Counted from the first letter of the stretch, positions 2,358-52,678 are shown. The stretch: 64,000 bases of DNA from Syntrophales bacterium (GCA_041648505.1 JBAZOY010000001.1:79540-143539); one strand, 5' to 3'. Notes: generated by a model not told the origin, from the sequence alone. Program-made: numbers and translations.

Positions 2358-4331
2358 TCATTCCTGTAATAAATAATCGAAACTTACAGGATTCCGCCCG
2401 GCCGTAGAGATCACTTCGTCCATTCCCTTCAGGGATTTCGCTCTATTGGATTTTATCACTTCACGGTACTTTCCCATCTTCAGGGCCTCATCGAAGTACT
2501 CCATCGCATCCTTTTTTTCTCCCAGATAGTAGTGGGCAATGGCCAGGTTATTAAGCGCCTCCGAATTTTCAGGCAGCAGCGTAATGGCGGTTCTGAAAAA
2601 CCATAAAGCTTCACTGTAATCACCTATCCAGATGAAATAGACGCCAAGATCATTGTAGCCCTTATGGTTAAGAAAATTCAAAACAAGGACGCTTCCAAAC
2701 TGCCTGAGTGCCTCCCGGCCGTCGTTTGCCCTGAAAGCCGTAATCCCTGCCTTAAGGTGTGCGGATTCTTTTTTCATTGAATCCTCTTCCGGTTCGACCA
2801 GTTGTTCAATTCTGAATAACGGGTAGTATTTTTTAACTTTTAGAAGAGTAACGGCAAGGTTTCCCAGGGCCTTTCTATAATCTGGTCTGATCGTGATCGC
2901 CTCATGATAGAGAAATATTGCCTCAATCAAATCGTCCTTTACGATGCAATTAGCCAGGTTATTACGCGCCCAGTAACTGCCGGGATTAACCTTTAAGGCA
3001 TGGGTGTACAATTTAATCCCGTTCTCCCAGGTCTTCGCCTGAACGAAGGTTGTCAGCATAAGCATTACAAGGATAAGGAAAACAGGCAATAGATGAAAAA
3101 ACCTTCTTTCCCGGCGGATAAATATCGCGACGGCCAAAGCCGGTCCCATCATGGAAAAGTAGAGATAGCGATCCGCAACCGTCGAGAACCGCTGAAACAA
3201 AAAAGGAACGATACCGGATACGGGAAGGAAACCCGCCAGAAATATGAGAAAACATGCCAGGTAAAGGGGGCATCTCCGCCGCAGACACCAGAGCGCAACA
3301 AGTAAGCCCAGGGAAACGGTCCAGGAGAGGTATCCCCACCATTGGCTAAGAACAAATTCCGGAGTGCGGGCATAATCAATACCCAGCGATGCGGGATAAA
3401 ATAATTTACCCAGATAAAATGTTGCCGCATCGAAGGCAACAAAAGGTCTCAACCATACAGGCGATATGTATGGCAGCAACTCTGTGCTTTGTACGTGGAT
3501 CGTAACAAGCATTGATAACAGTGAGAGGATAACCCAGGGGATAATGTTCCTCAAGTTGGCTTTATATTCTATCCGGAAAAAGAAGTGATTGATGATGACA
3601 AGAAAGAGGGGAACGACAACACTGACAGGTTTTGCCATGAGGGCAGGAAAGAAACAGGCCAGCGAAAGGCTGTAGTAGAGGTTTTTTAGCCGGTTGTCTT
3701 TAGCCTCCTCTGTTTTCAGGCGCTGATAGATCAGGTAAAGCTGAATGGAGAGGAGGGAAAAAAAACAGGCCAGCAGTGTTCTCAGCTCGGTAATATAAGC
3801 CACGGTTTCCACCTGGACGGGGTGGATGCCAAAAAGTAAAGCACCCAGGAAGGCGGAAAACTTATCTTTAACCAGTGAAGATACGATCAGAAAGATGAGG
3901 ACTGTGTTCAGCAGATGAAGGAAAATATTTATGAGGTGGAATACCCGTGCATGAACGAGATACTCACTGTCCTGGGGCAGATGGTGAGAAACAGAACTCC
4001 ATAATACGGACCATACTGTATAGGTAAGAGGGATATAGAGTTTTAAAAAAGGTTTTTTCCAGTAATTCAGGATGTTTTCAACGCTACCCTCTTTTAGAGG
4101 TTCGTTTTCTGTGATGTTGGGCAGATCATCCCATACAAACGAACTGTTATTAAAGAGCGGGGCATACGAAAGAGATAAAAGGCAGACAATAATTAAGGTT
4201 GATATGGCAAAGCGGAAGGATGGCAAATAAAGCACCTGTTTTACGGAGACAAACCCTTGCCAGCTCTCCCAAGTGTGTCCCCCCCCCATCCACGCGGGGA
4301 GGGGCACAGAAGAAAGGATATTATCCGACAT
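2358..4331 (-). CDS. Multi-TM GT-C-type glycosyltransferase (PMT/ArnT/TMTC-like) with C-terminal TPR repeats
   Basis: About 430 aa of repeated hydrophobic helices, with an acidic FVWDDLPNITENEPL motif in the first loop as in PMT/TMTC enzymes. The C-terminal ~220 aa have TPR-like repeats (YWARNNLANC..., ALNNLAIAHYYLGEKKDAMEYFDEALK). Confidence 0.65.
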   Translation of the reverse strand: MSDNILSSVPLPAWMGGGHTWESWQGFVSVKQVLYLPSFRFAISTLIIVCLLSLSYAPLFNNSSFVWDDLPNITENEPLKEGSVENILNYWKKPFLKLYIPLTYTVWSVLWSSVSHHLPQDSEYLVHARVFHLINIFLHLLNTVLIFLIVSSLVKDKFSAFLGALLFGIHPVQVETVAYITELRTLLACFFSLLSIQLYLIYQRLKTEEAKDNRLKNLYYSLSLACFFPALMAKPVSVVVPLFLVIINHFFFRIEYKANLRNIIPWVILSLLSMLVTIHVQSTELLPYISPVWLRPFVAFDAATFYLGKLFYPASLGIDYARTPEFVLSQWWGYLSWTVSLGLLVALWCLRRRCPLYLACFLIFLAGFLPVSGIVPFLFQRFSTVADRYLYFSMMGPALAVAIFIRRERRFFHLLPVFLILVMLMLTTFVQAKTWENGIKLYTHALKVNPGSYWARNNLANCIVKDDLIEAIFLYHEAITIRPDYRKALGNLAVTLLKVKKYYPLFRIEQLVEPEEDSMKKESAHLKAGITAFRANDGREALRQFGSVLVLNFLNHKGYNDLGVYFIWIGDYSEALWFFRTAITLLPENSEALNNLAIAHYYLGEKKDAMEYFDEALKMGKYREVIKSNRAKSLKGMDEVISTAGRNPVSFDYLLQE

Positions 4332-4346
4332 TGAAGGGTCTTACTT

Positions 4347-4781
4347 TTATTCCGAAACGCTTACTGTCCAGAAGTAAGGCTCGTTGGTCGTGTCATCCGG
4401 TGCGACCCTGGTAAAGGTGACAGTCTTGCCTTTAAAGTCAAATCCAGTAGCGCTCACAATAGAAAGATTGCTGTTCCAGTCTTCTCCCAGTTTTGTATCC
4501 GGCCCGGATACGGTGTCACCATTTCCTGCGGTTAAACTTAAGCCCGGCGCCGGATAGGCGCCGAGGCCATCCTTCAATTTCCACTCCGCGAGTTTCAATC
4601 TTTCCCGGGCACAAAGTTCCGACTTAGCGCCGCCTGACGATTTCTCTATTGCATCCTTGCGCATATCGAGATACTTCGGAATCGCTACCGCCGCCAGAAT
4701 ACCGAGGATAACAAGCACGGCAATAATCTCAATGAGGGTAAAACCTTCTTCATTTTTCATGATCTTTCTTGTTTTAATCAT
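4347..4781 (-). CDS. Type IV pilin (candidate major pilin of the locus)
   Basis: MIKTRKIMKNEEG|FTLIEIIAVLVILGILAAVAIPKYL is a prepilin leader plus conserved N-terminal helix. A GGGAGG RBS lies 7 nt upstream and a sigma-54 promoter lies further upstream. Confidence 0.85.
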   Translation of the reverse strand: MIKTRKIMKNEEGFTLIEIIAVLVILGILAAVAIPKYLDMRKDAIEKSSGGAKSELCARERLKLAEWKLKDGLGAYPAPGLSLTAGNGDTVSGPDTKLGEDWNSNLSIVSATGFDFKGKTVTFTRVAPDDTTNEPYFWTVSVSE

Positions 4782-4831
4782 TTTAAACCTCCCTGAAACG
4801 ATTTTCTTTTCGTTTTTTACTCTAATCTACC

Positions 4832-4846
4832 GCATCTTGCATGCCA
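4832..4846 (-). promoter_or_regulatory. Sigma-54 (-24/-12) promoter for the pilin gene
   Basis: The minus strand reads TGGCAT-GCAAG-ATGC, against the consensus TGGCAC-N5-TTGC, with correct GG/GC spacing. It lies ~50 nt upstream of the pilin ATG. Confidence 0.6.
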
Positions 4847-5004
4847 TACATTAAAGCTAAGGGGACACGGACCACGGAATATATCCCCGTAAAAACATAA
4901 GTATCTGTTAATATTTGATATTTATTTTATAAAAATCTTACTTTGCGATAAAGGACCCGACCTCTGGTAAAGTACGAAGAGCCAGGTTCTTCGTACAATG
5001 ATGG

Positions 5005-6348
5005 TTAATCTACATTTTTTGTAGCTGTTTGTTTGAAAGGATCGGTGTCTATCCCGTATTTTTTGATCCGGTGCCAGAGACTGCGCTGGTTGATGCCGAG
5101 AACTTCGGCAGCCCTTGCCTGAACTCCCGCGGTACGGTTCAGGGCTTCGATGATCAGGCCTTTTTCAACCTCCTCCAAACGTTCATCAATTGTCGTGGAA
5201 TCGGGGAAACCTTCGGAGACCTGGCCGCTCATTGGGCCTATAATATTTGCCGGCAGATGCGACGGCTCGATGAGGCCGTCTTCAGTAAGGACGGCTGACC
5301 TTTCTATGGTATTTTGAAGCTCCCTGATGTTACCCGGCCACGAATACCCGGTAATTACCTGAAGGGCCGGTGGAGATAGTCTGACCGATTCAGATTTTTT
5401 TTCGAGAAAATGTTCTACCAGATAGGGAATATCTTCCCGGCGCTCCCTTAAAGGCGGCAGGTAGATGGAAAAAACATTGATTCGGTAATACAGGTCTTCC
5501 CGAAATAGTCCTTCTTTGACCATCTGGGGAAGGTTCTTGTTCGTCGCCGCGATAAAACGGATATTTACTTTGATTGTCCGGGTTCCCCCCACCCGTTCAA
5601 ACTCTTTTTCCTGCAAGACGCGCAGTATCTTTGCCTGCGTTGTAAGAGGCATGTCACCGATTTCATCTAAAAAAACGGTGCCGCCGTTGGCGGCCTCAAA
5701 TTTGCCGATTTTTTGAGAGATTGCACCGGTAAATGCCCCCTTTTCATAGCCGAACAGTTCACTCTCAAGGAGATTTTCCGGGATTGCCACGCAATTAATT
5801 TTGACAAATGGTTTTCCGCGGCGCAGGCTGTATTCGTAAATACTTGTTGCCACAAGCTCCTTCCCTGTTCCGCTTTCCCCCGATATGAGAACGGTCGAGT
5901 CCGTCGGCGCAACCTTCAGTATCTGCGTGAATATACCTCTCATAACCTTGCTCTGACCGATAATACCCGGGAAAAGTTCCTTTGCCTCAACCTTACTCAG
6001 AATATTTGTGACCTCAATAAATACATCGGAGAAGTGCTCCAGCGTATCTTTTGCCTGTTTTTCTTTTTCCCGTGGTTTCGGAAAGACCGGCAGGCTTTCC
6101 GCCTTTTTTATAAATTTCGTAACCGGTCTCAGCATAATCCACGTAATTATCAGGCCAACAATAAAAGTCAGGAACGCAACGGCAATCTCCCACACCATAA
6201 ATGGCCAGACTTTAACATTTGCAACTCCCCCACTTAGCAGACGGGCAGTAATAATAACCCATAAAAGGGACAGACCGCTGAAAGTGAAGGGAACCAGAAA
6301 ATACAAGCTGACAGGAAAATATTGTTTTCTTATTTTCTTCATTCTCAT
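5005..6348 (-). CDS. Sigma-54-dependent transcriptional activator (bEBP), N-terminally membrane-anchored, no receiver domain
   Basis: AAA+ core with GESGTGKE (Walker A) and the GAFTGA loop, and a C-terminal Fis-type HTH (AAEVLGINQRSLWHRIKKYGI). The N-terminal ~75 aa form two hydrophobic helices. The start overlaps the stop of the platform gene by 1 nt. Confidence 0.85.
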   Translation of the reverse strand: MRMKKIRKQYFPVSLYFLVPFTFSGLSLLWVIITARLLSGGVANVKVWPFMVWEIAVAFLTFIVGLIITWIMLRPVTKFIKKAESLPVFPKPREKEKQAKDTLEHFSDVFIEVTNILSKVEAKELFPGIIGQSKVMRGIFTQILKVAPTDSTVLISGESGTGKELVATSIYEYSLRRGKPFVKINCVAIPENLLESELFGYEKGAFTGAISQKIGKFEAANGGTVFLDEIGDMPLTTQAKILRVLQEKEFERVGGTRTIKVNIRFIAATNKNLPQMVKEGLFREDLYYRINVFSIYLPPLRERREDIPYLVEHFLEKKSESVRLSPPALQVITGYSWPGNIRELQNTIERSAVLTEDGLIEPSHLPANIIGPMSGQVSEGFPDSTTIDERLEEVEKGLIIEALNRTAGVQARAAEVLGINQRSLWHRIKKYGIDTDPFKQTATKNVD

Positions 6349-9370: not shown

Positions 9371-10933
9371 ATTTTTAAAAAACACTGTATCATCATCCGG
9401 TTTGGATATGATTTTTGCGTGTAACGTAAGCGGAGATGGTAAATTTCTTACCGCACCCAGGGCTGATTCCCTGTTGACATAACCATCTTTCAAGAAGATG
9501 GAGAATACCAGCCCTTCCCTGAAATTCCAGTACGGAAGAAACATTAACGACGGTAACGCACGTTCATAACTCTTGTATAATTCATAGATTTCTTCGATAT
9601 TTTCGCCACTTGCTACCTGCACCCAGTATTTTCCAGGAGAAAGATGTTTTGATTTTGCGGGAAGCGCCGGAAGCTTGATCACTTCACCGGCTCTCACCTG
9701 ATTAAGATCCTTGAGATGTTGATTCGCAAGGACAACCGCCTGAAATTGCTCAAAAGATAAATCCCCATAAAAATCAGCAGCTGTACGCCACACGGTTCTA
9801 TCCTTTTTTAATCTCACCCCCCCCAGTAGATCAGGCATCGTTTTTGGAACCGCCGGTAATCCCGCCGACACCTCTTCTGCCACTGCTTCGGTCACAGAGG
9901 TTGTGCCCATACCAACCATCTCCGATGCAGAATTAATAACCGGAGAGGGATTCCGGACATTGATAAGGATTGTATGTTTTTTCTCTTTCCCGTAATCGAA
10001 TATTTTAGAGGGGTACAGTCCTGCTACTATCACGAATACACATAAAGCGGTCAGGACCGTTGCCGCTATCCATTTTACATTCCTCCGCTGCTCTAAAAAG
10101 CTTCTCCCTCTACGGGCACAGGAACGAACGAGGAACCATCCGGCTCTTGAACGGTTCTGGATGATCAATGCCAGGATAATCTGATGACACAGAGTTACAA
10201 TCTTCCTCGGATAACCCCCAGTTGCCATATAAAGAGCCCATAAACCCGGGTAAGTAAACAGTGAAGGCGCTTTATCGGTATCGCCGGCTTTTGCAAGACG
10301 GGATATGACCATGCCCCGTGTCTCCCGGAAATTAAGGGGATTCAGGAAATAGTAGAGGTTAACCCGGTCGGCGACGTTCATCATTCTCTTTAACGTCTGT
10401 TCAAATTCCCTCTGGGCAAAGATAACAATCTGGAGTATTTTATACTCATTCGTCTCGTAATTGAGAAATTCGCGCAGCAACTCAAGACAAAAATCCGGCA
10501 GTTTCTGCCCTTCATCAATAAGGAGAACTACCGTCCTTTCATCATCAACGGCCGATTTAAAGAGATAATTTTTGATGCTTTCCCTGAGCTGCCATTCGCT
10601 GTCAAGGCTATCCGATCCGGCAACGCCGAATGTCATCGCTACAACAGATAAAAATTCACGGGGGTTTGTAAAGGCTGGGTCCATGAGAAGGTGTGCTTCT
10701 ATTCTTTCTCCATCCTTTTCAGAAGCGGCAAATTTAAGTAAAAGTTGGCGACAGAGAGTGGTTTTTCCTGTCCCCACATCCCCAATCACCACATTTAATC
10801 CTCGACGGAGACGTACGGCAAGTTCTAACTCTTGCAGGCAACCAGTATGCTCAAGAGAGGGGAAGAAGAATTCCGGTTCCGGCGAGTTGGAAAAAGGCTC
10901 CCTGTTCAGGTTTAAAATCCTGAAATAATCCAT
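9359..10933 (-). CDS. ExeA/MshM-like AAA ATPase with TM segment and periplasmic C-terminal domain
   Basis: GDVGTGKTTLCRQLL (Walker A) and ...VVLLIDEGQKL (Walker B), then a mid-protein TM helix (WIAATVLTALCVFVIVAGLY). The C-terminal region is SPOR/LysM-like. Confidence 0.8.
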   Translation of the reverse strand: MDYFRILNLNREPFSNSPEPEFFFPSLEHTGCLQELELAVRLRRGLNVVIGDVGTGKTTLCRQLLLKFAASEKDGERIEAHLLMDPAFTNPREFLSVVAMTFGVAGSDSLDSEWQLRESIKNYLFKSAVDDERTVVLLIDEGQKLPDFCLELLREFLNYETNEYKILQIVIFAQREFEQTLKRMMNVADRVNLYYFLNPLNFRETRGMVISRLAKAGDTDKAPSLFTYPGLWALYMATGGYPRKIVTLCHQIILALIIQNRSRAGWFLVRSCARRGRSFLEQRRNVKWIAATVLTALCVFVIVAGLYPSKIFDYGKEKKHTILINVRNPSPVINSASEMVGMGTTSVTEAVAEEVSAGLPAVPKTMPDLLGGVRLKKDRTVWRTAADFYGDLSFEQFQAVVLANQHLKDLNQVRAGEVIKLPALPAKSKHLSPGKYWVQVASGENIEEIYELYKSYERALPSLMFLPYWNFREGLVFSIFLKDGYVNRESALGAVRNLPSPLTLHAKIISKPDDDTVFFKNQRR

Positions 10934-42247: not shown

Positions 42248-42694
42248 ATGACAGTAAAGGTCAAAAATCTCTGTCCTAACTGCGGCACAGAAATAGAATG
42301 CTATCGCAACCCTTTCCCCACCGCGGATATTATTATCGAGTTGGATGAGACAGGTATCGTTCTTATCAAACGGAAAAATCCCCCACATGGATGGGCCATT
42401 CCCGGAGGGTTTGTTGACTATGGAGAATCCCTTGAAGAAGCAGCCGTAAGAGAAGCTAAAGAGGAGACAGGCCTGGATGTTATCCTCCTTAAACAACTGC
42501 ACACATACTCAAGGCCGGACAGAGACCCTCGGCATCATACAATCACCACCGTCTTTATTGCCAGGGCAAGCGGTACCCCTGCCGCCGCCGCCGATGCCGC
42601 AGAAATTGGTATATTCACAAAGGAAAACCTACCATCTCCACTTATGTTCGACCACAAACAGATATTGGCAGATTATTTTAACCAGAGGTTATAG
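42248..42694 (+). CDS. NUDIX hydrolase with N-terminal zinc ribbon
   Basis: CPNCG...C and the NUDIX box [23 protein letters not shown]. Confidence 0.88.
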
Positions 42695-45508: not shown

Positions 45509-45799
45509 TCACTCGCTAGCCAGTCTCACCAGGTCTTCGATGGATTCAGGAACCTTGATCAGGTTCTCTTTCCTTGCCTTTGACAGCTTCTTGATTTTGT
45601 TTTCCACTCTGAGTGCGAGACTTCTGCTCCCCAACCTCTTCTCCAGCACCAGGGTCAGAGGGCGCCTACCTCGAAGGTATTTTGACCCGCGGCATCCTTT
45701 TTCCTGGTGCTCTGCAAACCGGCGAGCAACATTAGTTGCAATTCCCGTGTAAAGACTCCCATCGTGGCATCTGATTAAGTACACGTGCCAATTAGACAT
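45509..45799 (-). CDS. GIY-YIG nuclease-family small protein (UPF0213-like)
   Basis: WHVYLIRCHDGSLYTGIATNVARRFAEH. The start is set at the internal Met MSNWHVY. Confidence 0.8.
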   Translation of the reverse strand: MSNWHVYLIRCHDGSLYTGIATNVARRFAEHQEKGCRGSKYLRGRRPLTLVLEKRLGSRSLALRVENKIKKLSKARKENLIKVPESIEDLVRLASE

Positions 45800-45970
45800 A
45801 ATAGAACCCTTCACGTTAGCACTGCCGATTACCGGCACCCCTGCAGAGACCTGGACGTGCCCGATTCGCTCCATGCTAAAACTTCCCGCAAGGGATAGTC
45901 AAGCTGCCGGTTGTAACAGTTCATCTTTTTTGATACTTTTTCGAGAAGATCGGGGGATAGTATACCTGAT

Positions 45971-46096: not shown

Positions 46097-46283
46097 ACTA
46101 TATCGTTTAAAAATACCCAAACGGATAGGATTACGAACGAATGATTGCTTGAAGAGATTATGTGTTATTTATTGTAGTCAAGATTTTCGGCTGACGCGCC
46201 TGTATAGCAGCTTCCTTTTGGTAATGTGCAAGTGTGATCAAAGAAAAAATGAAGCGTTATTTACATCAATTCCAACATCTTTC

Positions 46284-49193
46284 TCATACCTCCCCCGCTG
46301 TAACAACCACATCAAAGTCCACGGAGAGTTCCTCAAAATGCCTGCGGCCGCACCGGATCTTTTCGGCTTCGGCATTGCGTAGTTTTTCAAAGTCTTTGGT
46401 GCCCTTGGTTTCGCGGACCAGATATAATACCGTGTCGTCATGTTTCAATATTGCCCAGTCGGGGTTGTATTCTCCTATGGGCGTCTCGACCCTAAACCAT
46501 CCCGGCAACTTGACAAAGAGCTTTATGTCTTCCCTCTGGTCGAGTTCCTCCGCAAACTTTCTCTCAATTTCGGAGTCATAAATTACAGCGTCATAGACCG
46601 ATTTCTTTACCTCCAGTCTGTTCGTCAGGTAGCTGATGATTTCCTTGTCCTCGAATAGCCTCATGCTCCATTCCTGATCAGCGATTTTTTCATATTTGAT
46701 GCCATCGATCATCAGCCGGTGCAGTTCCCGTTTAAGAATGCCGACTGCGGCGTCCATGAACCGCTGCGGATTGACGGCGAATTCGGAAAGCCGCCCTGAT
46801 TCGATCAATATTCTGGCAATGGTGGAACGTGTTAGTTCCGTTTCCTTCTGAATGTAGGCGATGATGTCGGGAAGTACGCCAGTAAAGGCGATGTCCGTAA
46901 TCGAACTTCGAATTTCCGTCGTACCGATTCCTTTGTAGGCCGCATCGAGGAGCGCTTCCCGGTAGGAAATGCGGACGGGCTCGACTTTTTCCATCTTCTG
47001 TATGGCCTCAACGGAACGGTTTGCGAGCACCCCCGTAGAATATTCCACAGAATAGGTCGTCTTCGTCTTGATCCGGTTCCAGAGGCTCTCGAAATCCTTA
47101 TCCAGAAAGACCTGCTTGTTGATCCTCAAGGGTCGCTCGTCTTCGTCTTTTTTGATGTGTCTGTCGATTTGATAAGACGCCATGACATCCATGATTTCGT
47201 TCTGTACGTCCTTGAATTCGTCCGGCACGGCAAAGACAAACCCCGGTGCTTTCGGGTTGAAGGCGGGCAGAATCTTTCCATCCTTATCGATATAGCCCTT
47301 TTCTTGAACGGTATTCCAGATCTTCTCGGAGGCATCCCTTCCAAGGGCAGTTTCCTCACCATCTACAACCCGCACGATCCCGGCAAACCCGCCGATGGGG
47401 ATCTTTCCGAAAGTGACCCCACAATCTTCCTCGTATTCCGTCTGGAGCGACCGGGCAAAGTCCTCATAGCTTTCATTGGCCACAACGGTCAGTTTGTTGA
47501 TGTTTTCGTCGAAAACCCGCTCGCCGTCCTGGTTGACGGGTAGCCGCAGTCCCCGACCGATTTCCTGCCGCTTCTTCAGAACGGAAGCCGTCTCGTTGAG
47601 TGTGCATATCTGGAAGACGTTGGGATTGTCCCATCCTTCCCGCAGGGCGGAATGGCTGAAGATGAAGCGGAGCGGTTCGTCAAGAGACAAGAGTTGCTCC
47701 TTGTTTCGCATGATCTTGGTGTAGGTGTCCTCATCCGCCTCAGAGTTCCCCCGCGTATCTTTCAGGACGCCCTTTTTATCCTGTGAGAAGTAGCCGTCAT
47801 GGAGTTTCTCAACCGGATAGGAGAGAAGTCCATGGAAACGAGGCTGGGCAATCAGTTCATTATAGTAATCCTCAAACCATTGGGCAAATTTCCCCTTGGC
47901 AGGTTTGCCCCACTCATCATACGCCCGGTAGTTAGCCACCCGGTCTATAAAAAACAAGGATAGGACTTTAAGCCCCTTGTCTTTAACTTGACACTCCTTT
48001 TCAAGATGCTTCCGGATGGTGTTTCTGATCTGGACTTTCATCAGGTCTTCCCGGATGCCGCCCTGTTCTTCGCCGCGTCGCAGAAAGCGCCCGTTGCTGA
48101 ACCCTACGAATTCATTGCCCGGTTCAGCGCTTATCTCCGAGATGACGTAGCCGTCCCGATAGGCCTCCCGCTCGTTGGAGAGGACGAAAAGATCGGCTCC
48201 CTGTTTCACCTTGACGGTCTTTTCCCGGATGCCGCCCGGTTTGTTTTCATGGATGGCCACTTTTGCGATGATCCCTTTGGTATTGTCCACTTCGACCAGC
48301 TTCGCATACGCGGCATTGAAGGTGTTGGCGCCCTTCGCCTCCGCCACGACAATCTGTTTCACCAGCCGCATCTCGTAGGCCTGGATGGGGTCCAGCTTGT
48401 AAACATGGTTGTAGAGATTCCGGTGTGTCGCCGAATAGCGAAGTGTGCAGAGGGGATTCAGCGTCTTGATGGCCTCCTGAGCCTTGGGCGTATTGTCAAC
48501 GCTTTGAGGTTCGTCGATGATCACAATGGGATTCGTGGCCGTGACGAACTCGATGGGCTGACGGCCTGAAAGCTTGTCGTTCTCCTTGAAGATGACGTTG
48601 CTCTTCTGCTCATCGTCGGTGCCCGTGAAATTCTTGCGGAAGGCGTCGATATTGATGACCATGATTTGAATTGAATTACTCACCGCAAATTGTCGCAGGC
48701 GATTGATCTTCTGAGAGTCGTAAACAAAATACTCATATTCGATATTGTTAAAGAGGGCTTTGAAGTGGTCTTGTGTGATCTCCAGGTTTTTCAGGACGCC
48801 CTCGCGTATCGCCACGCTGGGGACGACGATGACGAATTTCTTGAAGCCGTATTTCCGGCTGAGTTCAAAGATCGTCCTGAGATAGACATACGTCTTACCC
48901 GTTCCCGTTTCCATCTCCACACTGAAGTGAAAGTCCTGTAAAATAGGTATTCGATCAATACCGTGGCGATCCTGAATGGTATTGACATTCGCGAGGAGCG
49001 TTTCATCGTTGATCAGGAGCCGATTCCCCATTCCCAGCTCCGTCTGGACCTGCCCGCTCAACACGCCCTTATAAGAGGTTTCAAAGCGGATTTCAAAATC
49101 CCCCTGGTGCAAGGGCTGACCGTCGAATATGGCCACCACGGCATTGACGGCGTCTATCTGGAATTGTTGCGAGGCGTCGAATTTAAGCTTCAT
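46284..49193 (-). CDS. res: Type III restriction enzyme, Res subunit (SF2 helicase + C-terminal nuclease)
   Basis: METGTGKTYVY (motif I), IIDEPQ (DEAH-like) and ALREGWDNPNV (motif VI), with a C-terminal ...YNPDWAIL...LVRETKG PD-(D/E)xK-like region. It starts 2 nt after mod. Confidence 0.92.
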   Translation of the reverse strand: MKLKFDASQQFQIDAVNAVVAIFDGQPLHQGDFEIRFETSYKGVLSGQVQTELGMGNRLLINDETLLANVNTIQDRHGIDRIPILQDFHFSVEMETGTGKTYVYLRTIFELSRKYGFKKFVIVVPSVAIREGVLKNLEITQDHFKALFNNIEYEYFVYDSQKINRLRQFAVSNSIQIMVINIDAFRKNFTGTDDEQKSNVIFKENDKLSGRQPIEFVTATNPIVIIDEPQSVDNTPKAQEAIKTLNPLCTLRYSATHRNLYNHVYKLDPIQAYEMRLVKQIVVAEAKGANTFNAAYAKLVEVDNTKGIIAKVAIHENKPGGIREKTVKVKQGADLFVLSNEREAYRDGYVISEISAEPGNEFVGFSNGRFLRRGEEQGGIREDLMKVQIRNTIRKHLEKECQVKDKGLKVLSLFFIDRVANYRAYDEWGKPAKGKFAQWFEDYYNELIAQPRFHGLLSYPVEKLHDGYFSQDKKGVLKDTRGNSEADEDTYTKIMRNKEQLLSLDEPLRFIFSHSALREGWDNPNVFQICTLNETASVLKKRQEIGRGLRLPVNQDGERVFDENINKLTVVANESYEDFARSLQTEYEEDCGVTFGKIPIGGFAGIVRVVDGEETALGRDASEKIWNTVQEKGYIDKDGKILPAFNPKAPGFVFAVPDEFKDVQNEIMDVMASYQIDRHIKKDEDERPLRINKQVFLDKDFESLWNRIKTKTTYSVEYSTGVLANRSVEAIQKMEKVEPVRISYREALLDAAYKGIGTTEIRSSITDIAFTGVLPDIIAYIQKETELTRSTIARILIESGRLSEFAVNPQRFMDAAVGILKRELHRLMIDGIKYEKIADQEWSMRLFEDKEIISYLTNRLEVKKSVYDAVIYDSEIERKFAEELDQREDIKLFVKLPGWFRVETPIGEYNPDWAILKHDDTVLYLVRETKGTKDFEKLRNAEAEKIRCGRRHFEELSVDFDVVVTAGEV

Positions 49194-49195
49194 AG

Positions 49196-51184
49196 CTATA
49201 CCGTTCTGAAGGTAATGTTCCGGGTTTTCATGATCTGCACGGCATTGGTCTTGAGCTGGTCGTTGCCTTTGAAGCCTTCGTCCAGGCAGACGACGCGAAC
49301 CGGTTTCATTTCGGCCATCTCTTTGATGACGTCCGGCGTCAAATCCTTTTCCAGACAGATGAGCATGGAACCATCAGCAATAGTGAAAACATCCCTTTCC
49401 GCCAAAACAGTCTTTTCGATTTTCGTGGTCAGGGAGAACCCCGATTTCAGAAGGATTTCGTATAGGATGTTTTCCTGGGAGCTTTGCGGATTGATGTGCT
49501 CGACGAAAAGGGCAATCTGTTTTTTAATGGCTTCTTCATCCTTCGCCACGTCGCCGTCCCAGAGTTTGAAATTAGAAGGCTGGAGCTTGAAGACCTTGAA
49601 ACCAAGATCTGGCTGCGGCTTGGCGGCGGAGAACAGGCCTTTCTTCTTTTCCTGCTCATCTTTGATATTCTTGATAACCCGGCGGATGCGTTCCTTGCCG
49701 ATGTCGGAGATGGTCTTGAATCCGGTTTTGTGGGCTTCGGAATTTTCCTCTGTTGGCTCGGGCAGTTGCACCATAATGAACTTGCGGTTGCCGCCGTCTT
49801 CCTTGTTCAGTTCGAGGACGGCGTGGGCGGTGGTGGCATAGCCAGAAAAAAAATCTAAAACAATATCACCTTCTTTGGTTGCGGTATGCAGGATCTTATT
49901 TATGAAATAGGGTGATTTAGGATAGTCTGGGTTTAAATCATTAAAAAGTCTTTTGAATTCGCGATTAGCAACATCAGTTGAGATATCGCCACCCCACCAA
50001 AAAGATTTTGTCTTCGAAGTCCTCAAGAAATCTTGATCGCCATCATCCGCTTCCTCATCTCCTAAATCAGACATAATGCCTGGCTTTAAATAAACTCTAT
50101 GATCAATATCCCAGCGGCCCTTTTTTTCTGAGTAGCGTGGATGCAAATACTTCAAATTATCTGAGACCTTATCTATTCCCCATCGCCAACGACCATCACT
50201 CCCATCTCCGCGTTTAGGTAAAATTTCTACATCACCATTATTTATACGTTTCAATGAGCAGTACCCTGATTTATGATTAAAAAATATTGAGAAAAACATA
50301 TTAGGCCGGTCTATACGGCGATCTGGCCGTCCTCGTTTCCGTAGGTCTCTTAAAGCAAATCTTTCTCCATTCTCATCTTTATATTTATATTCCTTTAACT
50401 GTTCCTCTGTTAACGGGAGTCCATATGATACAAAATTGCCCCTTGAATAAATAAGCAAATATTCATGACAGGTTGCAACATTTGCTTTATCATTCCTGCC
50501 TTTCATATTGTTAATTACCGTTAGGCTTGCAATGTGGTTCTCCTCGCCAAAAATCTCATTCAGTATACTTCTTAATCCAATAAATTCGTGCTCATCGATC
50601 GAAATAAATATAACCCCATCCTCCCGCAACAGATTCCTTGCCAGAAACAGGCGTGGATATATCATGTTCATCCATTTGGAATGGAATCGACCGTCCGCTT
50701 CCGTGTTCGTGGAGTATTTCCGTCCCTCGTTGTCAATCTGTCCGGTGTAGCGGAGATAGGTGTCCAGACTTTCGCTGTAATCATCAGGATAGATGAAATC
50801 GTTGCCTGTGTTGTAGGGGGGATCGATGTAGATCATCTTGACCTTGCCGAAATAGGACTTCTGAAGGAGCTTCAGGACCTCCAGGTTGTCGCCCTCGATG
50901 AAGAGATTTTCCGTCGTGTCGAAATCTACGGATTCATCGCGGGCGGGCGCCAGGGCAGCGATGCTCGGCTGCTGGATGATCTTGAAGCAGTCGGCCTTCC
51001 CTGGCCAGTTCATCCCGTAGCGTTCCTTTCCCGGATCTACCATTTCTCCAAGGGTCAGCTTGAGCCGTTCAAAGTCAATCTTTTGCCCTTCTGTAAAGGC
51101 CTCAGGAAAGAGGGCTTTGAGCTGTTCCCGTTTTTCCTCAACGATATCAATCGACTTCAGATCCAGCTTTTCAATTTCTGCCAT
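49196..51184 (-). CDS. mod: Type III R-M Mod subunit (N6-adenine DNA methyltransferase, beta class)
   Basis: IYIDPPYNTGNDF (motif IV) precedes VLDFFSGYATTAHA (motif I). The start is set at MAEIEKL with a GGAGGG RBS. The longer listed ORF overlaps abi. Confidence 0.92.
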   Translation of the reverse strand: MAEIEKLDLKSIDIVEEKREQLKALFPEAFTEGQKIDFERLKLTLGEMVDPGKERYGMNWPGKADCFKIIQQPSIAALAPARDESVDFDTTENLFIEGDNLEVLKLLQKSYFGKVKMIYIDPPYNTGNDFIYPDDYSESLDTYLRYTGQIDNEGRKYSTNTEADGRFHSKWMNMIYPRLFLARNLLREDGVIFISIDEHEFIGLRSILNEIFGEENHIASLTVINNMKGRNDKANVATCHEYLLIYSRGNFVSYGLPLTEEQLKEYKYKDENGERFALRDLRKRGRPDRRIDRPNMFFSIFFNHKSGYCSLKRINNGDVEILPKRGDGSDGRWRWGIDKVSDNLKYLHPRYSEKKGRWDIDHRVYLKPGIMSDLGDEEADDGDQDFLRTSKTKSFWWGGDISTDVANREFKRLFNDLNPDYPKSPYFINKILHTATKEGDIVLDFFSGYATTAHAVLELNKEDGGNRKFIMVQLPEPTEENSEAHKTGFKTISDIGKERIRRVIKNIKDEQEKKKGLFSAAKPQPDLGFKVFKLQPSNFKLWDGDVAKDEEAIKKQIALFVEHINPQSSQENILYEILLKSGFSLTTKIEKTVLAERDVFTIADGSMLICLEKDLTPDVIKEMAEMKPVRVVCLDEGFKGNDQLKTNAVQIMKTRNITFRTV

Positions 51185-51215
51185 GAAATAACCCTCCGAA
51201 AGAGGCTGTAAGATA

Positions 51216-52127
51216 TTATGCAACCGGATTATTGTTGTTTTTCCAGATAGGGCAATCCTTCCACTCTTTGGGGAAGCCCATCGGCGCCAAGGGAATATTG
51301 GAATAATCCTCAAGCAGCTTTTCCACCCGATTCGGCCAACGGCTCAACGGCGCTACGTAAGCAATGAGATAGCGAAGCAAGGTTAATACCGCAAAAAGCC
51401 TTTCATTTCTTACTTCGACCGGGGTGTGCCATTCAGGATGCTTGTTGCGCCTTGGAATAGCCGGCTTTATGCCGAGAGCCCGGTTCCATAAGCGGCCATG
51501 ATGAGCGCAAATATTACGTACCTGGTTGAGGCAATGGAGCCAGGAATCCAGGACTTCAGCCGATATTCCGTATACGGCTGCAACATTGCGCCTGATTTCG
51601 GACTCCGTTCCCCGAAATAAAGTGAAAAGCATTCCAAAAGTCATGAGTTCCACGGCCATCCATAACGGCAAGTCGGTTTCCTTTCTGTACTTTTGCCGGT
51701 AGTGCTCAACAAACCGTTCCTGGCTGTGGATGGCTTCCTCGCAGATTTTATGAATCATCTCAATCCTTTTATCATTATTAATTTTTGGAAGATTGGCAGG
51801 ATTGAGATGTCCAAAGGCCCCGTATTTCAAGGTGAAGGTATTGGTCAACTGCGTCCGGACAGCTATCTCTACCCGCTCAATGGCGTCCATGACCAGCAGC
51901 CTCATTTGGCGGTCGAATGTGTACCGCCGCCAGATCATTTCAAAAGTGGTACCTGGCTTTAAAGTGTCATCATCTTGGCGGAAAGGATACCAATAGGCGC
52001 TGAGACGGTAATAACTGACGTTGCTCAGATGAATGAGAAGTGTTTTCTTGTCTGTAACTACCAGACCACGGTTGATTAGGAGGTCGGCCTGCTGATCGAA
52101 AGTGAGAGACGATTTGGTATATTTCAT
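51216..52127 (-). CDS. Abi_2 (AbiD/AbiF-like) abortive-infection family protein
   Basis: MKYTKSSLTFDQQADLLINRGLVV...HLSNVSYYRLSAYWYPF and ...VRNICAHHGRLWNR are characteristic of the Abi_2 family. It lies 31 nt upstream of mod on the same strand. Confidence 0.8.
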   Translation of the reverse strand: MKYTKSSLTFDQQADLLINRGLVVTDKKTLLIHLSNVSYYRLSAYWYPFRQDDDTLKPGTTFEMIWRRYTFDRQMRLLVMDAIERVEIAVRTQLTNTFTLKYGAFGHLNPANLPKINNDKRIEMIHKICEEAIHSQERFVEHYRQKYRKETDLPLWMAVELMTFGMLFTLFRGTESEIRRNVAAVYGISAEVLDSWLHCLNQVRNICAHHGRLWNRALGIKPAIPRRNKHPEWHTPVEVRNERLFAVLTLLRYLIAYVAPLSRWPNRVEKLLEDYSNIPLAPMGFPKEWKDCPIWKNNNNPVA

Positions 52128-52140
52128 ACGGCCCTCGTAT

Positions 52141-52197
52141 AAATAAAAAATCCGCCAAAATTGAGCATGTTTCCGAAGAAACAGAGGCTTGGCGGAT
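52141..52197 (-). terminator. Terminator-like hairpin plus U-run in the abi leader (possible attenuator)
   Basis: The minus strand reads ATCCGCCAA-gcctct-GTTTC-TTCG-GAAAC-atgctcaatt-TTGGCGGAT-TTTTTATTTA, followed by the RBS GAGGG and the abi ATG. Confidence 0.5.
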
Positions 52198-52208
52198 GTG
52201 CTGGTGCT

Positions 52209-52236
52209 ACTATAGCCGTATGCTCAGAAATGTCAA
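52209..52236 (-). promoter_or_regulatory. Sigma-70-type promoter candidate upstream of abi
   Basis: The minus strand reads TTGACA-16 nt-TATAGT. Confidence 0.5.
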
Positions 52237-52678
52237 GTAGATTTTGCAATAAAATTTTCCTTATCTTTTGCATATGTTAAACAATCTTCCAGCGAATCGT
52301 AAATAATTCCTGCTTAATTATGTTCTGTGATCTGCCCCCCCCAAGCTGGTCCAATTTCTTGGGGTAGTTTTGTCTTCATAATCGTCTGACCAGAAATCGT
52401 TGTCGATTGAATATTGACATCAAGAAGAACATCCAGATTTACATTAACTGAAAAACACCCTGTGTCAAGCATTTGTACCTTTCATTCGGCATTCAATAAA
52501 ATGCTCCAATGACCAGAATCAATGATTTGTATTTGAAAGCTTGGACGCATCGTTTTTGCCGATGCTTACCGCTTTCAGGAAGCAATGACTTTTGATTGTC
52601 TTTATACATACTGCCAAGAATACTTTGTCTTATGGCCTATAAGCCGTAAGTATTAATTACCAACTGCATATAATACAC

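Follow-up and report, generated by a model that had tools for sequence, protein, structure and literature searches.

AbiF proteins, which carry the Abi_2 domain, have been described in work from 2025 as HEPN RNase toxins that are neutralised by the abiF non-coding RNA (ncRNA) (PMC12373285, PMC12737573), and a review from 2026 treats AbiD/F as type III toxin-antitoxin systems made up of a protein and an RNA (PMC13064643). According to PMC12373285 and PMC12737573, PDB 8VZ6 is a dimer of a Prevotellaceae AbiF with two copies of its own ncRNA bound, and PbAbiF-AbiFr is credited there to Zilberzwige-Tal et al. 2025; what is said below of PbAbiF and of the abiF RNA (Weinberg) follows those two papers and PMC12165695. 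In C. difficile, transcription of the abiF-motif RNA RCd22 starts at a SigA promoter and for the most part stops ahead of abiF; abiF is repressed 17-fold by RCd22 in cis, and in trans the RNA binds the toxic protein directly and thereby neutralises it (PMC12373285). RNA binding and neutralisation have been shown for PbAbiF and AbiF_Cd only (PMC12373285, PMC12737573), and published AbiF systems show both toxicity and neutralisation with no restriction-modification (R-M) system involved (PMC12373285). Abi2/AbiF/AbiD were also listed as "embedded in R-M operons" in Table 1 of Anantharaman et al. 2013 (PMC3710099). Here we compare these systems with a locus in a 64,000-nt stretch of DNA from a Syntrophales bacterium (GCA_041648505.1 JBAZOY010000001.1:79540-143539; the window, numbered from its first letter), where an AbiD/F-type gene, abi, is followed on the minus strand by a type III R-M pair, mod and res. 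An initial annotation of this locus had called Abi_2 proteins mechanistically poorly understood; since the AbiF-RNA mechanism is now published, with an RNase toxin, an ncRNA antitoxin and a solved ribonucleoprotein (8VZ6), that description is out of date.

We consider it likely that the locus is an AbiF/abiF-RNA type III toxin-antitoxin cassette occupying an accessory slot 5' of a type III mod-res pair. The minus-strand open reading frames (ORFs) concerned run from 52127 to 51216 (303 amino acids, aa), over 49196..51313 (the longest ORF for mod) and over 46284..49193 (969 aa), giving the order abi (52127..51216), mod (51184..49196) and res (49193..46284). Read directly from the sequence, the abi stop codon TAA lies at 51218..51216 and the mod ATG at 51184, leaving 31 nt between the genes, and the mod stop codon TAG at 49198..49196 is followed by the res ATG at 49193 after 2 nt. 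Both spacings are as initially annotated, and matches in Pfam, PADLOC and NCBIfam bear out the assignment of the genes as Abi_2, type III mod and type III res. All three are intact, with strong matches to their families.

The product of abi (51216..52127, minus strand, 303 aa) is predicted from Pfam, PADLOC and PDB homology to be an AbiD/F (Abi_2) HEPN RNase and a toxin. It matches Pfam Abi_2 (PF07751) with an E-value of 9.8e-59 and 199 bits (cut-off 25.6), covering positions 2-184 of the 184 in the domain, and PADLOC AbiD at 8e-79 and 263 bits. The Rx4H motif, R204-N-I-C-A-H209, is intact and fits the HEPN Rx4-6H catalytic motif; among 39 homologues R204 is invariant and H209 nearly invariant. 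Residues 14-296 align with residues 18-300 of PbAbiF in PDB 8VZ6 (E 9e-47, or 1.5e-66 with the subfamily profile). In this alignment R204 and H209 fall on R210 and H215 of PbAbiF, whose double mutant is reported to be inactive (PMC12373285). Pfam reported Abi_2 as the sole domain of the 303-aa protein, with no ATPase domain. The closest Abi relative among the 80 Abi-centred loci described below is that of Smithella sp. SCADC, with 82% identity.

The initial annotation treated abi as simply fused into the R-M operon, and overlooked a putative strong promoter of its own and a conserved abiF ncRNA/terminator leader. A motif scan places a sigma70-type promoter-like site, TTGACA-16 nt-TATAGT, with 11 of 12 matches, at 52236..52209 on the minus strand; it is the best such site in the 8-kb region scanned. 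The site is 90% conserved in the related loci L083/L084 and L089, and a TATAnT box stands at the same distance from the RNA motif in the consensus of the 80-leader alignment. We predict that it serves as the promoter of the abiF RNA and of a read-through abi(-mod-res) mRNA. The abiF RNA motif itself, a 67-nt AbiFr-like ncRNA and predicted antitoxin, spans 52138..52204 on the same strand, as indicated by Rfam, a covariance model and folding. The minimum free energy fold of the leader (-20.1 kcal/mol) coincides with the motif, and comprises an 8-bp outer stem P1 (52197..52190 with 52157..52150), a 3-bp inner stem P2 (52189..52187 with 52166..52164) and a 6-bp variable hairpin P3 (52183..52178 with 52173..52168), followed by UUUUUUAUUU, a GAGGG box and the ATG. 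Because a U-run (52149..52140) comes directly after P1, the outer stem looks like an intrinsic terminator. The Shine-Dalgarno (SD)-like GAGGG of abi lies at 52132..52136, and a G-rich box occupies the SD position in most homologous leaders.

Scanning the whole window with Rfam at gathering thresholds returned nothing. A permissive local scan gave a full-length match to RF03085 at 52196..52150, with 27 bits and E 0.041 (gathering score 37). Nine related loci scanned with RF03085 gave no gathering-level match, and we therefore built a family-specific covariance model from 79 homologous leaders, with the window left out. With this model the site in the window reaches 72.3 bits (E 3e-19), the only strong match in the 64 kb. 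All 79 loci whose sequence extends far enough upstream, from many phyla, have the same leader ahead of abi, with the conserved order of a -10-like box, AGCAnACCCGCC, a variable triplet, CCUCUG, the hairpin, a stretch beginning with GC, GGCGGG and the U-run. In the 80-row alignment of the 79 leaders and the window, the 10 proposed pairs form in 99.4% of cells, against 30-46% when the partners are slid by 1-3 columns. Six of the 10 pairs carry compensatory changes, including A-U/G-C at the base of P1 and A-U, G-U, C-G, G-C and U-A at the first pair of P2. The leader model also detects the motif on plasmids from cultured bacteria, ahead of Abi genes with 37% identity. The variable hairpin of the window subfamily is longer than in the Rfam consensus, and because RF03085 misses this subfamily at its gathering score, although the motif there is unmistakable, its abiF RNA is probably under-annotated. 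One further weak match to the leader model lies inside a predicted coding sequence at 42366..42417 (minus strand; 16.3 bits, E 0.034) and is probably due to chance.

To place the locus among its relatives, a metagenome scan with Mod yielded 80 loci (L083-L162). Res is 80-96% identical to the window protein in L083-L095, L100, L101 and L115. Within this clade (Res at least 80% identical), mod is preceded by an abi gene and its abiF motif in L089, L092/L095, L101 and L115; the Abi proteins there are 90%, 78%, 81% and 82% identical to that of the window, respectively, and the Res proteins 80-93%. Given this recurrence, the refuting condition set in the initial annotation, an association confined to this one genome, does not hold, and it is plausible that the genes share a transcript. 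The gene is absent from L085, L086, L090/L093, L091 and L094; with abi present in some close mod-res relatives and absent from others, the association is recurrent but facultative.

The comparison at the DNA level reveals an exchangeable slot. In blastn alignments of the window with L083-L086/L089, identity is 86-92% over the N-terminus of mod, the C-terminus of mod and res. Between flanks of ~90% identity, the interval 52271..51191 holds the abi cassette, a gene for an NYN-domain protein or nothing. L085 and L086 carry the NYN-domain gene with no abiF remnant. In L083/L084 the abiF promoter and RNA are kept (63 bits) and are then followed by an NYN cassette in place of the abi ORF. The gene in question encodes a 207-aa NYN-domain (RNase-like) protein (L084 5065-6000, also in L083, compared with window 52289..51191), alongside a Res 95-96% identical to that of the window; it has its own TTGACA-17-TATATT box and a leader with a GC hairpin and U-run. 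When the NYN leaders were compared for a conserved structure like that of abiF, those of L084 and L085/L086 did not align. The unit from promoter to res is common to contigs with differing flanks. The abi cassette is a modular accessory in an exchangeable slot, and its modular exchange is directly visible in these relatives.

Across the Mod family, the genes just 5' of mod include SMC/ABC-like ATPases, SNF2 helicases, Abi_2, NYN, Schlafen, Fic, GmrSD and others, and those between mod and res include Schlafen-ATPase, RhuM, KilA-N, YhcG and UvrD/OLD. The accessory proteins of L083-L162 comprise ~775-aa SMC/ABC-like ATPases (AAA_23, with a weak LmuB match), AAA_21 proteins, Schlafen AlbA_2 with HATPase_c_4, UvrD with OLD-TOPRIM, GmrSD and HNH. 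Both positions, 5' of mod and in the mod-res gap, form hot spots at which defence-like accessory genes are found. In L119 (625-1837), L140 (3113-4334) and L129 (2-667), a distant Abi_2 gene (26-30% identity) overlaps the start of mod, that of L119 matching PADLOC AbiD at 1e-74. Near these genes the abiF model gives only a weak match (L140 3312-3367, 18.9 bits), and they may represent a variant with a different partner. The distant Abi_2 genes of L119 and L140 are preceded by a small ORF of 89-104 aa without a family match.

A second survey was centred on Abi. One genome per species of the Genome Taxonomy Database (GTDB) was scanned with an alignment of Abi homologues, which gave 80 loci (L003-L082) of 47-82% identity, and R-M neighbours were called on all of their ORFs by profile searches seeded with HsdM, HsdS, HsdR, Mod and Res. 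A co-oriented R-M gene lies within 400 nt of abi in 30 of the 80 loci (type I or IIG-like in 26, type III in 4) and further away in 5; none was detected in 45. All R-M neighbours within 400 nt are on the abi strand, and Pfam tallies agree. Since the gene order recurs in relatives of the window and 30 of 80 abi loci have a co-oriented R-M gene, the adjacency of abi and R-M genes is more than chance. The commonest layout is hsdM-(abiF RNA-abi)-hsdS-hsdR, with abi often overlapping the hsdS start; Smithella, the closest relative, has hsdS-abi-hsdM, and annotated plasmids have hsdM-hsdS-Abi-(x)-helicase subunit. The order abi-mod-res is found in L076, a metagenome-assembled genome (MAG) of Elusimicrobia, and mod-abi-res in three Verrucomicrobia MAGs (L042, L056 and L060, at about 9900-10900 or 4280-5270), where the distance from abi stop to res start is 6, -1 and -4 nt, respectively. 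With the abiF RNA-abi cassette between mod and res in these three, a terminator-like RNA separates mod from res. The embedding of such genes in R-M operons was already tabulated in 2013 (PMC3710099): a HEPN abi gene embedded in an R-M locus is a known theme, and this is a type III instance of it.

The R-M genes themselves form a canonical type III pair, for which methylation and ATP-dependent cleavage are predicted. The 662-aa type III DNA methyltransferase encoded by mod (49196..51184, minus strand; Pfam, PADLOC and motifs) matches N6_N4_Mtase (PF01555) at 6.5e-27 and PADLOC MTase_III over its full length at 2e-191 and 636 bits, and its motifs are intact, with motif IV DPPY at residue 121 preceding motif I FFSG at 445. 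The target-recognition region, at about 50582..49865 on the minus strand, does not align, as DNA, with relatives sharing ~90% identity on either side of it; the target-recognition domain has been swapped, which implies that methylation and restriction specificity differ. The 969-aa type III restriction subunit encoded by res (46284..49193, minus strand) combines an SF2 helicase with a C-terminal PD-(D/E)xK endonuclease. It matches ResIII/DEAD plus RE_endonuc at 3.5e-38, PADLOC REase_III at E 0 and 1038 bits, and the NCBIfam type III endonuclease at 3e-103, with GTGKT at 97 and PD...ETK at 911-930 intact.

Upstream of the cassette, blastn and translations reveal the 3' stub of a SNF2/DrmD-like helicase gene at 52277..52327 (minus strand), consisting of the last ~13 codons, which end in KQELFTIRWKIV, and the stop. 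At the DNA level, homology with related loci has its left edge at this stub: by blastn, window 52327..52271 aligns with L085 3451..3507 and L086 767..823, and the matching L085 DNA is the end of a 963-aa ORF. DrmD is the best PADLOC match of the SNF2 gene (3.8e-213, via the L090 homologue), which lies at 610-3501 in L085, 3087-5975 in L090 and 1985-4906 in L101. In at least 46 of the 80 Mod loci, mod is preceded by a ~960-aa SNF2 gene, or by its 3' end at a contig edge, so that the family core looks like SNF2-Mod-Res and not like a plain two-gene type III system. With X as the SNF2 gene, the orders seen are X-mod-res, X-abi-mod-res, X-NYN-mod-res and X-ATPase-mod-res. As only the stub is kept in the window, the promoter that would have served X-mod-res is gone. 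Membership in DISARM, suggested by the DrmD-like gene of the relatives, was considered and rejected: Mod and Res match only type III PADLOC models, the window has only the 13-codon stub, and it lacks the set that defines DISARM, drmA, drmB (DUF1998) and drmC with a DISARM methylase.

The 31-nt abi-mod spacer (51185..51215, minus strand) contains the mod SD, GGAGGG at 51197..51192. By sequence and folding it has no significant structure (fold z-score +0.61) and no convincing terminator or promoter. A 5-bp hairpin in the gap, CCTCTTTCGGAGG, was rejected as a terminator, since it has no U-run, overlaps the mod SD, shows the same z-score of +0.61 and is only loosely conserved. L089, L101 and L115 retain a spacer of 30-44 nt together with the ATTCATG start context; in L092/L095 the gap is 240 nt. 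The unstructured spacer of kept length, together with the overlap of abi with the next R-M gene elsewhere, makes a shared read-through transcript likely, and the loss of the SNF2 gene makes the abiF promoter, via terminator read-through, the most likely source of an abi-mod-res transcript. Judged from sequence, it is the only good candidate upstream of mod. Co-transcription, as initially proposed, is supported by co-orientation, tight spacing and gaps free of terminator-like structure. We conclude that abi, mod and res probably share a transcript through read-through of the abiF terminator.

Given the gene identities and the recurrent arrangement, we hypothesize that the locus serves as a compact phage-defence unit with two layers, ~6 kb long (roughly 52330..46200, minus strand) and built from two separable modules, a reading we hold to be likely. 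In the first module, the strong promoter would drive a structured abiF RNA of ~60 nt, and P1 with its U-run should terminate most transcripts. Read-through of this terminator would yield the mRNA for AbiF, the HEPN RNase. By homology with PbAbiF-AbiFr and AbiF-RCd22, abundant abiF RNA would bind the AbiF dimer and block its active site, and a lowered RNA-to-protein ratio during infection would free the RNase and lead to cell arrest. In the second module, the mod-res pair would cut unmethylated incoming DNA. The coupling of abi to the R-M genes is probably one of shared regulation and co-mobility, and not one in which the enzyme is sensed directly.

Several observations weigh against this reading of the locus. 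RNA neutralisation is known only for Abi proteins ~35-40% identical to that of the window, RF03085 stays below its gathering score in the window and its nine relatives, and the window has one abiF motif where RCd22 has two. The RNA motif and its covariation are observed features, and the promoter and terminator activities are predictions. A strong terminator ahead of an always-needed methyltransferase gene would be an odd expression scheme, and a weak promoter-like site in the 3' end of abi (51255..51228, 9 of 12 matches) could drive mod-res alone; this site falls in the part of abi that encodes the conserved DCPIW end of the protein, and neither L101 nor L115 clearly retains it. In addition, 45 of the 80 Abi relatives are without a detected R-M neighbour, so any functional link is facultative.

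The internal site leads to an alternative that we regard as rather unlikely, in which cassette and R-M genes are independent neighbours: abi transcription would end or be negligible past the abiF terminator, mod-res would be expressed from the promoter in the abi 3' end, and defence would be merely additive. The autonomy of the cassette, with its own promoter-like site, RNA and SD, fits this alternative, as do the 240-nt gap in L092/L095 and the free exchange of the slot. However, the site at 51255..51228 is weak, is embedded in the DCPIW codons and is not clearly conserved, whereas the unstructured 30-44 nt spacer is; abi overlaps the start codon of the downstream R-M gene in other loci; and, with the family's upstream gene deleted, the window has no other obvious promoter left.

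Type III toxin-antitoxin systems are classic addiction modules. The cassette might accordingly stabilise or ride with mod-res, or use the operon as a safe harbour, with any synergy in defence being secondary. The sharing of the promoter-to-res unit by contigs with different flanks would agree with such hitch-hiking, as would the occurrence of unrelated toxin-like genes (NYN, Fic, RhuM, Schlafen and ABC ATPases) in the same slots. Yet R-M systems are addictive themselves and do not obviously need extra stabilisation, and the cassette is readily lost or replaced. We assign this explanation a low probability as an alternative; it is also compatible with the cassette-in-slot reading rather than exclusive of it.

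A stronger form of coupling, in which the abiF RNA/terminator gates the whole abi-mod-res unit as one regulatory circuit, or AbiF is a true guardian of the R-M system, instead of two systems being stacked, appears quite unlikely. Because the embedded unit is a whole promoter-RNA-terminator-toxin cassette, an antitoxin RNA lies upstream of restriction genes in a large fraction of the subfamily. If gating is real, the abiF RNA/terminator would control the restriction-side genes in mod-abi-res and hsdM-abi-hsdS-hsdR loci, and AbiF-RNA binding, RNA processing or termination altered by infection would set the level of restriction enzyme. An upstream, terminator-forming antitoxin RNA may in this way tie restriction gene expression to a toxin-antitoxin circuit, an effect on R-M expression that is not discussed in the literature cited here. 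The natural near-isogenic variants (~90% DNA identity) with abi, an NYN RNase gene or an empty slot offer a clean series for asking why RNase toxins accumulate inside R-M operons.

The initial annotation had also envisaged that abi depends on or senses the R-M complex; we found nothing that indicates this. In a guardian model of the PrrC/EcoprrI kind, AbiF would be held by, or monitor, Mod2Res and be freed when phage anti-restriction disables the complex. The AbiF subfamily is indeed embedded in R-M operons, co-oriented and often translationally coupled, and PrrC in a type Ic locus provides a precedent (PMC3710099; PMC12707154). For Abi and Res alike, L089 has the highest identity to the window, although among L092, L101 and L115 the two rankings do not track. 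Against this, the subfamily (47-82% identity) occurs in type I, type IIG-like and type III loci or with no R-M system, which argues against recognition of one particular enzyme; AbiF lacks the ATPase sensor domain of PrrC/RloC; and AbiF is toxic and neutralised without R-M in published systems (PMC12373285). It is unlikely that AbiF depends directly on the restriction complex, because the cassette already contains a dedicated inhibitor in the abiF RNA, its R-M context varies or is absent, and abi is replaced by an NYN gene or missing in mod-res backbones of ~90% identity; a guardian role is accordingly highly improbable.

The genes flanking the locus are housekeeping genes (2-oxoacid:ferredoxin oxidoreductase, ETF, glyoxalase and NUDIX), and a search around the locus for the boundary of this islet found no tRNA, integrase or repeat boundary. 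A small gene for a 121-aa GIY-YIG-domain protein lies ~400 nt downstream of res on the same strand (45509..45874, minus strand); a GIY-YIG gene also adjoins the embedded Abi in a Nitratireductor plasmid (L165).

Among the named systems, PbAbiF-AbiFr resembles the cassette in its near full-length protein homology, the aligned catalytic R/H residues and an abiF-family ncRNA directly upstream. It differs in that identity is only moderate and that the window cassette leads a type III mod-res pair. The AbiF_Cd-RCd22 system of C. difficile phi027 (PMC12373285) shares the order of promoter, abiF-motif RNA, terminator and abi, so that toxin mRNA would be expected by read-through in both, with the RNA as antitoxin. 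Whereas RCd22 comprises two abiF motifs, with a separate terminator placed 168 nt ahead of the ATG (PMC12373285), the window has a single motif whose own outer stem and U-run would act as the terminator, ~10 nt before the SD. The AbiF_Cd gene belongs to a prophage lysis module, not to an R-M operon (PMC12373285).

The description of Anantharaman et al. 2013 (PMC3710099) agrees with ours in placing Abi2/AbiD/AbiF HEPN genes within R-M operons, but it gives no breakdown by type and predates the RNA. In our 80-locus survey the usual host is type I (hsdM-abi-hsdS), and the window represents the rarer type III context, with abi 5' of mod; moreover, the embedded unit includes the putative promoter and the abiF RNA/terminator. 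PrrC-EcoprrI and RloC likewise comprise a HEPN RNase toxin encoded in an R-M locus and provide two-layer defence. These are anticodon nucleases of type I loci with an ABC-ATPase sensor, and are silenced by the restriction enzyme, whereas AbiF has no ATPase sensor domain, has an RNA inhibitor and shows no indication of interaction with Mod or Res.

Type III systems of the ToxIN kind have the same succession of RNA antitoxin gene, terminator and RNase toxin gene, with the ratio of the two products set by termination. ToxI-like antitoxins are tandem repeats processed by the toxin, unlike the single structured hairpin motif of the window, and the ToxN fold differs from the HEPN fold of the window toxin. 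Finally, EcoP15I and EcoP1I match the R-M part of the locus in the tight coupling of mod then res, the motif order IV-TRD (target-recognition domain)-I, and a Res that combines a helicase with PD-(D/E)xK. In contrast to them, the mod-res family of the window usually has a SNF2/DrmD-like gene upstream and carries accessory genes both before mod and between mod and res.

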